Assembly: GCF_036507355.1 (NCBI RefSeq)
Contig: NZ_AP027877.1
From: Escherichia coli
GTDB lineage: Bacteria > Pseudomonadota > Gammaproteobacteria > Enterobacterales > Enterobacteriaceae
Length of the DNA stretch: 64,000 bases
Strand: one strand, 5' to 3'
Shown here: one piece after another, positions 22,839 to 34,915 of the stretch
Numbering within the stretch: position 1 is the first letter of the stretch
How the letters are laid out: each line of letters opens with the position of its first letter
Notes under the pieces: model-generated
Seen by the model: only the letters and a program-made list of their open reading frames with translations
Database searches by the model: none
What the model was told of the DNA's origin: nothing
Position numbers and translations under genes: made by a program

Positions 22839-23927
22839 ATGCCTCACAATCCTATCCGCGTGGTCGTCGGCCCGGCTAACTACTTTTCACATCCAGGAAG
22901 TTTCAATCACCTGCACGATTTTTTCACTGATGAACAACTTTCTCGCGCGGTGTGGATCTACGGCGAACGCGCCATTGCTGCGGCGCAAACCAAACTTCCG
23001 CCAGCGTTTGGACTTCCAGGGGCAAAGCATATTTTGTTTCGTGGTCATTGCAGCGAAAGCGATGTACAGCAACTGGCGGCTGAGTCCGATGACGATCGCA
23101 GCGTGGTGATTGGCGTCGGCGGCGGCGCACTACTCGACACCGCGAAAGCCCTCGCCCGCCGTCTCGGTCTGCCATTTGTTGCCGCTCCAACGATCGCCGC
23201 CACCTGCGCCGCCTGGACACCGCTCTCCGTCTGGTATAACGATGCCGGACAGGCGCTGCATTATGAGATTTTCGACGACGCCAATTTTATGGTGCTGGTG
23301 GAACCAGAGATTATCCTCAATGCGCCGCAACAATATCTGCTGGCGGGGATCGGTGACACGCTGGCGAAATGGTATGAAGCGGTGGTGCTGGCTCCGCAAC
23401 CAGAAACGTTGCCGCTAACCGTGCGACTGGGGATCAATAATGCGCAGGCCATTCGCGACGTCTTGTTAAACAGTAGCGAACAGGCGCTGAGCGATCAGCA
23501 AAATCAACAGTTAACGCAATCATTTTGCGATGTGGTGGATGCTATTATTGCTGGTGGTGGGATGGTCGGTGGTCTGGGCGATCGTTTTACGCGTGTGGCG
23601 GCGGCTCATGCCGTGCATAACGGTCTGACCGTGCTGCCGCAAACCGAGAAGTTTCTTCACGGCACCAAAGTCGCCTACGGAATTCTGGTGCAAAGCGCCT
23701 TGCTGGGTCAGGATGATGTTCTGGCGCAATTAACTGGAGCGTATCAGCGTTTTCATCTGCCGACTACGCTGGCGGAGCTGGAAGTGGATATCAATAATCA
23801 GGCGGAGATCGACAAAGTGATTGCCCACACCTTGCGCCCGGTGGAGTCCATTCATTACCTGCCAGTCACGCTGACACCAGATACGTTGCGTGCAGCGTTC
23901 GAAAAAGTGGAATCGTTTAAAGCCTGA
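22839..23927 (+). CDS. ybdH: Iron-containing alcohol dehydrogenase family oxidoreductase YbdH
   Basis: 362-aa ORF MPHNPIRVVVGPANYFSHPGSFNHL... with GGGxxxD nucleotide-binding motif. Confidence 0.9.
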   Translation: MPHNPIRVVVGPANYFSHPGSFNHLHDFFTDEQLSRAVWIYGERAIAAAQTKLPPAFGLPGAKHILFRGHCSESDVQQLAAESDDDRSVVIGVGGGALLDTAKALARRLGLPFVAAPTIAATCAAWTPLSVWYNDAGQALHYEIFDDANFMVLVEPEIILNAPQQYLLAGIGDTLAKWYEAVVLAPQPETLPLTVRLGINNAQAIRDVLLNSSEQALSDQQNQQLTQSFCDVVDAIIAGGGMVGGLGDRFTRVAAAHAVHNGLTVLPQTEKFLHGTKVAYGILVQSALLGQDDVLAQLTGAYQRFHLPTTLAELEVDINNQAEIDKVIAHTLRPVESIHYLPVTLTPDTLRAAFEKVESFKA

Positions 23928-23936
23928 CGTGCAAAT

Positions 23937-24134
23937 TTAGCAGCAGCGCGCGCCGCCTTTTCCACCGTAGCGCGCGTCCTGCCGCTCACGGAAAAACTCT
24001 TCGTAGGTCATCGGCGTTTGATCGGGATGGTTAACCCGCATATGTTCGACATAGTTGTCGTAATCAGGCATACCAATCATCAGTTTCGCCGCCTGACCTA
24101 AATATTTTCCGGCTTTTGCCAGTGAATCAAACAT
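23937..24134 (-). CDS. ybdD: Small DUF466-family protein YbdD (downstream partner of cstA)
   Basis: 65-aa [55 protein letters not shown]... directly downstream of cstA on the same strand. Confidence 0.85.
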
Positions 24135-24286
24135 CAATACCTCCGGTAAACAGGTTGCTGAGAGAGTGCATTAATAGCTATCAACGCGCTCGGTCAGTCC
24201 CCTCGCCCCATCGAGGAGAGGGTTAGGGTGAGGGGGAACCCTCGGCACTATGCCAACATTCGCCAACATCCCCCCTCACTCTGACT

Positions 24287-26392
24287 TTAGTGCGCGCCTT
24301 TCGCCTGCGCTACGATCTCCTCAACATTTTCCGGCATCGGCTCATACGGCGTTTCTTTCGCCGTTGGCTTCGGCTCTTTCAATGCCGCAAGTGCCGTCTT
24401 AATCGAGAACAGTGCCAGAACCACCACGACCACCATAAAGAAGATGGTTAACCCGGCATCCAGACGGTTGTTGAACACCAGTTGCGCCAGCTGTGACTCA
24501 GTATACTGCGACGGAATATTGCCGCTGTCGATCATTGCCTGGAACTTGTTAGCAATGGCCAGGAAGCCGACTTTCGCATCCGGGCTAAACGCTTTCTGCC
24601 AGCCAGCGGTCAGGGTACAAATCAGCAGCCAGGCCGTTGGTACCAGCGCCACCCAGGCGTAACGTTGACGTTTCATTTTGAACAGCACCACGGCACAGAG
24701 CATCAGCGCCATCCCTGCCAGCATCTGGTTGGCAATACCAAACAGCGGCCACAGAGTGTTAATACCGCCCAGCGGATCGACCACACCCTGATGGAGGAAG
24801 TAGCCCCACGCCAGTACGCACAGCGCCGTTGCCAGCAGGTTAGCAGGCAGTGAATCGGTCCGCTTCAGGCCAGGAGACACCACGCCCAGCAGATCCTGCA
24901 ACATAAAGCGCGCAGCACGCGTACCCGCATCTACCGCCGTCAGAATAAACAGAGCTTCAAACAGAATGGCGAAGTGATACCAGAACGCTACATCCATCAT
25001 ACCACCCAGCGCACCGTGCAGGATGTAAGCCATCCCCACCGCCAACGTCGGCGCACCGCCCGCACGGGAAATGATCGACTGTTCACCCACTTCGCTGGCA
25101 ATCTGGTTGAGCGTATCTGGTGTAATGCTAAAGCCCCAGCTACTCACCACCTGCGCGGCAGAAGCGACCACATCCGCCGTCCCTGCCGGAGCCAGCACCG
25201 CCATTGGGCTGTTCATGGCAAAGTAAACGCCCGGATCGATGATACAGGCGGAAACCAGCGCCATAATCGCCACGAAGGATTCCATTAACATTCCACCGTA
25301 GCCGATAAAGCACGCCTGCCCTTCGTTCGCCAGCATCTTCGGCGTGGTGCCGGAAGAGATCAGCGCATGGAAGCCAGACACCGCACCACAGGCGATGGTG
25401 ATAAACAGGAACGGGAACAGGTTACCGGTCCATACCGGGCCAGTGCCATCGACAAATTTGGTCAGCGCAGGCATGGTCAGCGTCGGACGCATAATCAAAA
25501 TGCCTACCGCCAGACCGACGATAGTCCCGATTTTCAGGAAGGTAGAGAGGTAGTCACGCGGGGCCAGCAGTAACCACACCGGCAGCACCGCCGCCACAAA
25601 ACCGTAGCCCACCAGCATCCAGGTCAGCTGCACGCCGGTAAAGTCAAAGTACGGTGCCCAGGTCGGGCTTTCTGCCACCCAGCCGCCAGAGATAATGGCA
25701 AAAATCAGGAACACCAGGCCAATCACTGACACTTCGCCAATACGCCCCGGACGCAGATAGCGCAGGTAGATCCCCATAAACAGCGCCAGCGGAATGGTGA
25801 ACGCAACGGTATACGTTCCCCACGGGCTATGAGTCAGGGCTTTCACCACGATCATCGCCAGCACAGCAAGGATAATGACCATGATCATAAAGCAGGCCAC
25901 CAGCGCGATCACCCCGGCGGTTGGCCCCATCTCTTCTTTGACCAGCTCACCCAGCGAGCGACCGTCACGGCGCGTAGAAACAAACAGCACCATGAAATCC
26001 TGCACCGCACCGGCGAGAACCACCCCGGCGAGCAGCCAGATCATCCCCGGCAGGTAGCCCATTTGTGCTGCCAGCACCGGCCCCACCAGCGGCCCTGCTC
26101 CGGCAATGGCCGCAAAATGGTGACCGAACAGCACTTTCTTGTCCGTCGGCACATAGTCCAGCCCGTCGTTATGCCGCACCGCTGGCGTCATACGCGTCGG
26201 GTCAACCGCCAGCACATTTTTGGCGATATACAGACCATAAAAACGGTAAGCGATCAGATAGATACAGACCGACGCCACCACAATCCACAGTGCGTTGATC
26301 TGTTCCCCACGATTTAAAGCAATGTATCCCAGAGCAAATGCTCCCATTACAGAGAGCACTGTCCAGACGAGGTATTTCCCTGATTTGTTCAT
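24287..26392 (-). CDS. cstA: Carbon starvation protein A (CstA-family peptide/pyruvate transporter)
   Basis: 701-aa polytopic membrane ORF MNKSGKYLVWTVLSVMGAFALGYIALNRGEQ... Confidence 0.93.
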   Translation of the reverse strand: MNKSGKYLVWTVLSVMGAFALGYIALNRGEQINALWIVVASVCIYLIAYRFYGLYIAKNVLAVDPTRMTPAVRHNDGLDYVPTDKKVLFGHHFAAIAGAGPLVGPVLAAQMGYLPGMIWLLAGVVLAGAVQDFMVLFVSTRRDGRSLGELVKEEMGPTAGVIALVACFMIMVIILAVLAMIVVKALTHSPWGTYTVAFTIPLALFMGIYLRYLRPGRIGEVSVIGLVFLIFAIISGGWVAESPTWAPYFDFTGVQLTWMLVGYGFVAAVLPVWLLLAPRDYLSTFLKIGTIVGLAVGILIMRPTLTMPALTKFVDGTGPVWTGNLFPFLFITIACGAVSGFHALISSGTTPKMLANEGQACFIGYGGMLMESFVAIMALVSACIIDPGVYFAMNSPMAVLAPAGTADVVASAAQVVSSWGFSITPDTLNQIASEVGEQSIISRAGGAPTLAVGMAYILHGALGGMMDVAFWYHFAILFEALFILTAVDAGTRAARFMLQDLLGVVSPGLKRTDSLPANLLATALCVLAWGYFLHQGVVDPLGGINTLWPLFGIANQMLAGMALMLCAVVLFKMKRQRYAWVALVPTAWLLICTLTAGWQKAFSPDAKVGFLAIANKFQAMIDSGNIPSQYTESQLAQLVFNNRLDAGLTIFFMVVVVVLALFSIKTALAALKEPKPTAKETPYEPMPENVEEIVAQAKGAH

Positions 26393-26572
26393 AGTTGTTA
26401 TCCGTGTGCGTGTCCATAGAGATGTTACATTTTGTTTCTATAACATCTTTGCGCAATTTAACAACACAGCAACCATGTAAATCGGAGTTGAAACCAATAT
26501 TTAACTTAACAATGTTAACTCGATCACTCCGTTAACCGAGTTTTCCTGCAATCTCATATAATTCTGTCGGGT

Positions 26573-27734
<1,162 letters not shown>

Positions 27735-31401: not shown

Positions 31402-31430
31402 ATCATCCTCCACAAAATGATAAAGGCTTT

Positions 31431-31448
31431 AATAATGATTATCATTTA
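31431..31448. promoter_or_regulatory. Fur box in the entC / fepB divergent promoter region
   Basis: AATAATGATTATCATTTA closely matches the Fur consensus GATAATGATAATCATTATC. Confidence 0.6.
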
Positions 31449-31589
31449 TATTTTCGGTCGCTAACCTAAAAGCAAACGCGCACTATGTCAACTCTTGAGG
31501 TAACGCAATCTGCAACTCGGGGTTGCATCTGGTTGTGGTTACAATGAAAATGAGAAGCATTAACTTCATTAATAACAGGAAGCTGATTT

Positions 31590-33910: not shown

Positions 33911-34915
33911 ATGTCTGGTTCTGTTGCCGTGACACGCGCCATTGCCGTGCCCGGATTGCTGTTATTACTGATTATCGCGACGGCATTAAGTCTGCTCATT
34001 GGGGCAAAATCACTCCCCGCTTCCGTAGTGCTGGAGGCCTTCTCCGGCACCTGCCAGAGCGCCGACTGCACCATCGTGCTCGACGCGCGGCTGCCGCGTA
34101 CCCTTGCCGGTTTACTGGCAGGCGGCGCGCTTGGCCTTGCCGGGGCGTTAATGCAAACCCTCACCCGAAACCCACTTGCCGACCCCGGCTTGCTTGGCGT
34201 GAACGCCGGAGCCAGCTTTGCCATTGTGCTGGGTGCGGCGCTGTTTGGTTACTCTTCCGCACCGGAACAACTGGCGATGGCCTTCGCCGGGGCGCTGGTG
34301 GCCTCGTTGATTGTTGCCTTTACCGGCAGCCAGGGCGGCGGGCAGTTAAGTCCGGTGCGTTTAACCCTGGCGGGCGTGGCGCTGGCGGCGGTGCTGGAAG
34401 GGCTGACCAGCGGCATCGCCCTGCTTAATCCTGACGTCTACGATCAACTGCGTTTCTGGCAAGCCGGTTCGCTGGATATTCGCAATCTACATACCTTAAA
34501 AGTGGTGCTGATCCCAGTGCTGATCGCCGGAGCAACTGCGCTATTACTGAGTCGCGCGCTGAACAGTTTAAGCCTTGGCAGCGACACCGCGACGGCGCTG
34601 GGCAGTCGCGTGGCGCGCACACAGTTGATTGGTCTGCTGGCGATTACCGTGCTTTGTGGTAGTGCGACGGCGGTAGTTGGCCCGATTGCCTTTATTGGCC
34701 TGATGATGCCGCATATGGCGCGTTGGCTGGTGGGTGCCGATCATCGCTGGTCGCTGCCCGTCACGCTACTTGCTACCCCTGCCCTGCTGCTGTTTGCCGA
34801 TATCATCGGGCGGGTGATTGTGCCCGGCGAGCTGCGCGTTTCTGTGGTCAGTGCGTTTATTGGTGCACCGGTGCTGATCTTCCTCGTGCGACGTAAAACG
34901 CGAGGTGGTGCATGA
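33911..34915 (+). CDS. fepD: Ferric enterobactin ABC transporter permease FepD
   Basis: ORF 33899..34915 trimmed to MSGSVAVTRAIAVPGLLLLLIIA... Confidence 0.9.
   Translation: MSGSVAVTRAIAVPGLLLLLIIATALSLLIGAKSLPASVVLEAFSGTCQSADCTIVLDARLPRTLAGLLAGGALGLAGALMQTLTRNPLADPGLLGVNAGASFAIVLGAALFGYSSAPEQLAMAFAGALVASLIVAFTGSQGGGQLSPVRLTLAGVALAAVLEGLTSGIALLNPDVYDQLRFWQAGSLDIRNLHTLKVVLIPVLIAGATALLLSRALNSLSLGSDTATALGSRVARTQLIGLLAITVLCGSATAVVGPIAFIGLMMPHMARWLVGADHRWSLPVTLLATPALLLFADIIGRVIVPGELRVSVVSAFIGAPVLIFLVRRKTRGGA

Follow-up and report, generated by a model that had tools for sequence, protein, structure and literature searches.

In the Escherichia coli DNA analyzed here (the window, 64,000 nucleotides in all), the 152-nt spacer between cstA and ybdD carries conspicuous G-rich inverted and direct repeats. 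CstA and YbdD, the products of these neighboring genes, work together (PMC5847655), and the repeats raise the question of whether they form an element dedicated to coupling the two genes or belong to something more widespread, and of whether they act in the DNA, in the RNA, or not at all. A sequence-only reading had described an inverted repeat, AGGGTGAGGGGG (24225-24236)/CCCCCTCACTCT (24271-24282), complementary at 11 of 12 positions, together with a direct repeat, GCCAACAT, at 24252-24259 and 24262-24269, and had suggested an attenuator, a processing site, or a protein-binding element. Inspection of the sequence confirmed both repeats, and the ORF list and RefSeq annotation bear out the gene context that had been assigned. 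A repeat search furthermore extended the inverted repeat to 15 nt (24222-24236/24271-24285; 87% complementary, with 34 nt between the arms) and the direct repeat to 10 nt (GCCAACATTC/GCCAACATCC, 24252-24271), and it revealed an inner inverted repeat that had gone unmentioned, CCCCTCGCCC (24199-24208)/GGGTGAGGGG (24226-24235). The features discussed below are collected in Table 1. Compared with E. coli genomes, the window shows about 98.2% identity over 8 kb. The ORF list places the ybdD start at a TTG one codon upstream of the ATG (24135-24137), giving 66 amino acids, while the annotated protein, WP_000460431.1 (65 amino acids), starts at the ATG at 24134, with GGAGG 5 nt upstream.

Table 1. 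Genes, repeat units, predicted RNA structures, and mapped sites at the cstA-ybdD locus (positions are those of the window)
Feature	Position	Strand	Remarks
cstA, upstream gene	24287..26392	-	Pyruvate/proton symporter; ORF list and RefSeq annotation of the closest E. coli record
cstA stop codon	24289-24287	-	TAA
First block of truncated inverted type-B-like partner	24270..24282	+	CCCCCCTCAC, then TCT
A/B pair spacer	24237..24269	+	aaccctcggcactatgccaacattcgccaacat; homologous to the ~27-nt spacer of intact K-12 pairs
BoxC type-A unit, G-rich strand	24199..24236	+	Matches Holder 2015 'A mm' TM_ECO and Kaplan 2016 HPG1 apart from one block 2 substitution
BoxC block 3	24226-24236	+	GGGTGAGGGGG
BoxC block 2	24213-24222	+	GAGGAGAGGG, then loop TTA
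BoxC block 1	24199-24209	+	CCCCTCGCCCC, then loop ATC
Type-A flank	24183..24198	+	..cgcgctcggtcagt; partly recurs beside other type-A copies (alignment)
RNA hairpin 1, cstA-sense (predicted)	24225..24282	-	Inverted repeat plus inner GCC/GGC stem from the spacer
RNA hairpin 2, cstA-sense (predicted)	24200..24222	-	CCCUC.UCCUC GAU GGGG.C.GAGGG; BoxC blocks 2 and 1
Site orthologous to K-12 Term-seq 3' end 632098 (plus strand)	24189..24189	-	Coordinate mapped from PMC7815308
Site of extra 29-nt REP element, missing in the window	24171..24172	.	Present in K-12 and most E. coli; alignment, within ~3 nt
ybdD, downstream gene	23937..24134	-	YbdD/YjiX family small protein; ORFs and RefSeq annotation
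ybdD ATG	24134-24132	-	Shine-Dalgarno GGAGG at 24144-24140

Judged by sequence, the G-rich repeats of the cstA-ybdD spacer constitute one copy of BoxC, a family also described as PIT, TM_ECO, and HPG1. An older count gives BoxC as 56 bp in 32 copies (PMC2267715); HPG1/HPG2 is the name under which the family was described as a G-quadruplex motif (PMC5100583) and TM_ECO the name under which it was described as an intrastrand triplex motif, and Holder 2015 equates the TM_ECO/HPG motifs with BoxC and PIT (PMC4666352). TM_ECO comprises types A (TTA) and B (CCG), with 23 strict copies in K-12 and five loci at which A and B form inverted pairs (PMC4666352). The window carries, in succession, the parts by which BoxC is recognized, namely, CCCTC(G/T)CCC(C), GGG(G)AGAGGG, a TTA (type A) or CCG (type B) loop, and then GGGTGAGGG(G), and its core matches the published motif GGGAGAGGGTTAGGGTGAGGG. 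Family membership turned on whether the core recurs elsewhere in the genome, and it does: six other K-12 element loci that we fetched and aligned have a type-A core that is invariant in most columns, and parts of the 149-nt spacer match a median of 14 and a maximum of 24 places per genome (blastn, 5,426 complete E. coli genomes). The copy at this locus is itself already known, as the family has been described under four names and the copy appears in a published table: it is HPG1 no. 19 in Table 1 of Kaplan 2016, with a midpoint at 632058, 51 nt beyond cstA and 108 nt short of ybdD (PMC5100583).

With respect to the 'A mm' sequences of Holder Table 1, the type-A unit of the window differs by a single substitution, in block 2, where positions 24213-24216 read GAGG in place of the GGGG of other copies, adding a mismatch to hairpin 2. 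K-12 instead carries a variant of block 3 (GGGTGAGAGGG), which is why its cstA-ybdD copy is missing from Holder's strict 23 (PMC4666352). Within the 64-kb window, this is the only BoxC copy; an occurrence of GGGTGAGGG at 34158-34166, considered as a second copy, falls within a coding region and is due to chance.

The second arm of the inverted repeat belongs to a second unit. In the intact pairs at fepB-entC, ygfF-gcvP, and alx-sstT, about 27 nt of spacer (aacag.cc.gcactgg.gcgaa.att.a) separate the A unit from the inverted partner, which begins with CCCTCACCCC. The window has the equivalent of this spacer, aaccctcggcactatgccaacatt, followed by CCCCCCTCAC, which in the alignment stands in register with the CCCTCACCCC of the three intact pairs; there the partner breaks off. 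This partner block is the second arm of the sequence-only reading, and its end lies 4 nt short of the cstA stop codon. Given the homologous spacer and the partner block, the two arms are therefore two copies of block 3, one from a type-A unit and the other from an inverted partner, and we call the pair truncated because the rest of the partner is missing. The 10-nt tandem duplication sits within the A/B pair spacer. The sequence-only reading had recognized neither the repeat family nor the outer arm as the remnant of a second, inverted copy.

Since the G-rich strand is the template for cstA and ybdD, the mRNA holds its C-rich complement. We found that this RNA folds well. Hairpin 1 reaches -31.5 kcal/mol (z = -3.8), with only 1 of 200 shuffled sequences folding as well, so that the sequence-only reading's proposal to look for structure in the cstA-ybdD transcript was rewarded with a strong stem-loop. 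Hairpin 2 taken alone (-14.2 kcal/mol, z = -0.8) is no better than shuffles, the two hairpins together reach -48.9 kcal/mol (z = -3.4; none of 200 shuffles as good), and the whole cstA-ybdD spacer reaches -67 kcal/mol (z = -2.7). The repeats exceed chance, because the hairpin beats shuffles and the G-rich core belongs to a multicopy family. A good fold is nonetheless no proof of function, because palindromic repeats fold by construction. A helix sequestering the ybdD ribosome-binding site was also predicted, but at z = -0.15 it is no better than shuffles and was set aside.

When alleles of the genus Escherichia were folded one by one, all 10 kept a hairpin directly behind the cstA stop codon, with folding energies of -20 to -40 kcal/mol and loop lengths that vary widely. 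In six alleles, G.U wobbles give the cstA-sense strand an advantage in stability of 4 to 13 kcal/mol over the antisense strand, an asymmetry that hints at selection on the RNA and that reflects only about three independent substitutions. Covariation counting on a MAFFT alignment was dropped, because alleles with four and with five C residues throw the right arm out of register.

In K-12, an RNA 3' end has been mapped within this spacer by Term-seq. Adams et al. 2021 (supplementary file 1, sheet LB 2.0) list an end at 632098(+), 84 nt upstream of ybdD, with 1,686 reads and seen in LB at OD 2.0 only, one of three growth conditions (PMC7815308). This end, at ...GGGGCGAGGGGACUGACCGAG, lies 10 nt beyond hairpin 2 and has its counterpart at 24189 in the window; 3'-end mapping of the kind that the sequence-only reading had called for already existed. 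With an end so close behind the hairpin, a role of the element in the formation or processing of transcript ends becomes plausible. The same table (PMC7815308) shows a like geometry at the fepB-entC copy, with a 3' end at 624567(-), and at the lldD copy, where 3781065(+) is the 'primary' end of lldD. At all three of these type-A copies (624567, 632098, and 3781065), the end lies 3 to 10 nt past the hairpin and the C-rich strand is the one transcribed. Among the listed 3' ends (PMC7815308), we found none at the G-rich-orientation or type-B motifs for which we searched, in numbers too small for statistics. On the opposite strand, a region of Rho-dependent termination at K-12 631994(-), antisense to the cstA 3' end, has been listed with a Rho score of 4.5 and p = 8e-6 (supplementary file 2, PMC7815308). 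This position corresponds to about 24292 on the plus strand of the window, and antisense transcripts therefore cross the BoxC region and stop there; they are probably read-through from the convergent hcxA.

Considering these data, the explanation we favor, with a probability of roughly 0.6, is that this BoxC copy acts at the RNA level, as a set of REP-like hairpins after cstA. In this scenario, the C-rich cstA-ybdD transcript would fold into two GC-rich stem-loops right after the cstA stop codon, and these would behave as REP elements do, stopping or slowing 3'-to-5' exonucleases and possibly also pausing the polymerase. By virtue of such an exonuclease stop or polymerase pause, part of the transcripts would end as stable cstA-only mRNAs, and the rest would read through into ybdD. 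The hairpin would then be the cause of the 3' end mapped in K-12 and could influence the cstA:ybdD, and hence the CstA:YbdD, ratio. Thus, the element probably marks the ends of some cstA messages, and it is neither a canonical terminator nor a specific attenuator.

Searches for other classes of element returned little. A consensus scan of both strands from 23700 to 24600 found no promoter-like or terminator-like sites, and the hairpins are followed by CCUAACC and ACUGACCGAG, without the U-tract of an intrinsic (Rho-independent) terminator. In an Rfam scan of 23000-27500 at a permissive threshold, no family reached its gathering score; the only hit, to the mir-423 precursor at window positions 24217-24290 (+), scored 26.3 bits where 71 are required (E = 0.034) and, as a fortuitous resemblance to a long GC-rich hairpin, is biologically meaningless. 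The REP consensus palindrome (GCCGGATAAGGCG...CGCCGCATCCGGC) is absent from the spacer of the window, while K-12 has a 29-nt REP segment there.

Several points speak against a strong role for the element: the 3' end is weak and confined to a single condition, a U-tract is missing, and blocks 1 and 2 are dispensable in 22% of genomes. The summary of Maher lab work given in PMC4666352 describes PIT elements as having neither promoter nor terminator activity, and the orientation of BoxC at cstA-ybdD differs between genera; both points count against the RNA-level explanation. As to the attenuator or processing site of the sequence-only reading, what survives is a plausible role at transcript ends; the lack of a U-tract and of any promoter-like site and the frequent loss of blocks tell against the remainder.

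The locus varies considerably among E. coli genomes. The REP-less form found in the window occurs in only 401 of 5,426 genomes; the REP of K-12 sits between the BoxC unit and ybdD. In the alleles of KTa008 and Escherichia sp. MOD1, direct repeats resembling TCTCAGCAA lie on both sides of the REP. With a 292-nt query spanning the spacer, searched against 5,419 E. coli genomes, at least 80% of the query was covered in 4,229, with the type-A unit retained in most. In about 1,190 genomes (22%; ST131, Nissle 1917, and strains like them), coverage is only 61%. These have a short hairpin, GAGTGAGGGGG...CCCCTTACTC, in which BoxC blocks 1 and 2 are gone and the flank CCGAGCGTGTTGATAGC is kept; the type-A flank thus stays even in B2-type alleles without these blocks, such as that of Nissle. 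Before ybdD they carry a hairpin like that of Salmonella and Citrobacter, GCCCTC...GAGGGC, followed by AUUUGUAUU; in Nissle 1917 this second hairpin reads GCCCTCTTAATTCAGGAGGGC, then AUUUGUAUU, and resembles the spacer hairpin of those two genera. This structure may be ancestral. In E. whittamii, E. albertii, and two other Escherichia genomes, the short hairpin is accompanied by a REP. The cstA-ybdD pair is intact without most of the element in about 22% of E. coli and in the other Escherichia species, and blocks 1 and 2 are dispensable in the sense that these 22% of genomes do without them.

The 10-nt unit is present once in NC101, twice in the window and in K-12, and three times in GF131. 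Among E. coli, this unit, GCCAACAT(T/C)C, behaves like a small variable-number tandem repeat in the hairpin loop. A further difference is seen at fepB-entC, whose spacer in the window (31414-31589) has no BoxC; K-12 carries a pair there, one type-A and one type-B unit in inverted arrangement and about 190 bp long, and because the flanks align cleanly, we regard this as a presence/absence polymorphism of the whole pair. Holder 2015 found BoxC loci to be unusually rearranged and described a 'palindrome effect' by which partial loss of both copies leaves a stem-loop (PMC4666352). The variation at cstA-ybdD and at fepB-entC fits both findings.

Beyond Escherichia, ybdD follows cstA in all 78 Enterobacteriaceae genomes that we compared, with spacers of 20 to 154 nt (median 63). 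Of these spacers, 68 fold at z < -2 against dinucleotide shuffles, with a median z of -3.55. The sequences that do so are diverse: Citrobacter, Salmonella, and Kosakonia have simple CCCTCTCC/GGAGAGGG hairpins of the CCCTC/GAGGG type, some with a U-run; Enterobacter, Lelliottia, and Leclercia have REP-like palindromes; and Pluralibacter, Pseudocitrobacter, Enterobacter, and Cedecea have BoxC singles or pairs in either orientation. The regular-expression classes applied to the 78 spacers undercount BoxC units, and only the fold statistics were relied on there. Conservation of the repeat arms, which the sequence-only reading had named as a check, is a split result: each of the 10 Escherichia alleles retains the stem, and other genera use other hairpins at the same place. 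A paralogous pair of genes in K-12, btsT-yjiX, has a 49-nt spacer with a GC hairpin and a U-tract (z = -2.7), at which Term-seq recorded a strong 'primary' 3' end, 4589097, with 59,788 reads (PMC7815308).

This breadth suggests an extension of the RNA-level reading, one that we hold only tentatively. The stem-loop in pairs of a CstA-family gene and its small partner could be an old, selected leaky terminator or 3'-end stabilizer that sets the ratio of the two transcripts and whose sequence has been repeatedly replaced in the course of enterobacterial evolution, perhaps in a series running from a simple CCCTC/GAGGG hairpin to REP and on to BoxC singles and pairs. If this is true, the copies of BoxC and REP found here are not junk but functional parts acquired by co-option, and BoxC hairpins transcribed from the C-rich side would generally make stable mRNA 3' ends.

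The strongest competitor to action at the RNA level is that the element does nothing here. A BoxC pair, as a neutral or selfish repeat, would have landed in the spacer or decayed in it without any role, its hairpin persisting as the palindromic remnant that partial deletions of an inverted pair leave behind, and the 3' end would be an incidental stop of an exonuclease, of no consequence for expression. The hypervariability of the locus, in which the REP and blocks 1 and 2 come and go and the 10-nt unit ranges from one to three copies, speaks for such an account, as do the rearranged BoxC loci and 'palindrome effect' of Holder 2015, the absence from the window of the fepB-entC pair of K-12, and the lack of functional bias among the genes that neighbor BoxC (PMC4666352). 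It accounts less easily for a stable hairpin after cstA that is near-universal in the 78 Enterobacteriaceae loci despite unrelated sequences, for the working terminator hairpin in the paralogous btsT-yjiX spacer, and for stem substitutions that are G.U-compatible in the sense RNA. On balance, we consider the absence of any role unlikely, though a serious contender.

Action in the DNA is considerably less probable. Here, the G-rich strand would form an intrastrand triplex, or switch between a G-quadruplex and a hairpin, and so modulate transcription or replication through the spacer. Oligonucleotides of the family do form a triplex in vitro (Holder 2015, PMC4666352) and adopt G-quadruplex or hairpin forms in a cation-dependent manner (Kaplan 2016, PMC5100583), and the G-rich strand is the template strand of cstA and ybdD. 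However, DMS footprinting in vivo did not reveal a stable triplex, and double-stranded DNA remained in duplex form (PMC4666352). The change from GGGG to GAGG in block 2 of the window, moreover, adds a triplex mismatch and removes one of the four G3 tracts, leaving the copy one base short of the strict quadruplex pattern; K-12 has its own, different change, in block 3 (GGGTGAGAGGG), and 22% of E. coli genomes are missing blocks 1 and 2. An RNA quadruplex is not possible in the mRNA, as this has the C-rich sequence.

That the repeats evolved as a dedicated attenuator or protein-binding operator coupling cstA to ybdD is very improbable, since the sequence is found at some 14 to 24 unrelated intergenic sites per genome, and although the position between genes with cooperating products (PMC5847655), the hairpin, and the RNA 3' end would all suit such an element, the sequence has no alternative-pairing (anti-terminator) architecture, no U-tract, and no Rfam family match, and it is not conserved at the locus outside Escherichia, where other genera have other hairpins. 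What had been taken for an element specific to this pair of genes is a dispersed BoxC copy instead, and nothing indicates a specific protein-binding site.

The cstA-ybdD element is thus real and structured, yet ordinary, and by itself it adds little. Its modest value lies in the recognition that the visible inverted repeat is the center of a BoxC pair that has decayed, that Escherichia has retained a hairpin at this position throughout and Enterobacteriaceae a hairpin of one kind or another, and that published RNA 3' ends stand just after three BoxC hairpins transcribed from the C-rich side. On account of these three observations, BoxC may act like REP at the RNA level.

Compared with its own family, the copy in the window shares the three-block organization CCCTCGCCCC-N3-GGGGAGAGGG-TTA-GGGTGAGGGG and the intergenic, multicopy character of BoxC, in which A and B units form inverted pairs with a conserved spacer; it departs from the type in the single substitution in block 2, in a partner cut down to one block, and in the 10-nt duplication within the spacer. 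The btsT-yjiX terminator is a parallel in position, as it, too, lies between genes for a CstA-family transporter and a small YbdD/YjiX protein and consists of a GC-rich hairpin with a mapped RNA 3' end just after it. It is, however, a unique hairpin with a U-tract and 59,788 reads, whereas cstA-ybdD has a dispersed repeat without a U-tract and with 1,686 reads.

A purely functional analogy is that with REP/BIME elements, which are likewise short, GC-rich, palindromic intergenic repeats that form RNA stem-loops in 3' untranslated regions or between cistrons. They protect the upstream mRNA from 3' exonucleases, malE-malF being the classic case. REPs have an associated transposase family (RAYT), and no such family is known for BoxC. 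The two are unrelated sequence families, and the window is without a REP at this locus; nevertheless, it is REP-like elements that fill the cstA-ybdD spacer in Enterobacter, Lelliottia, and Leclercia, and in K-12 a REP adjoins BoxC itself.
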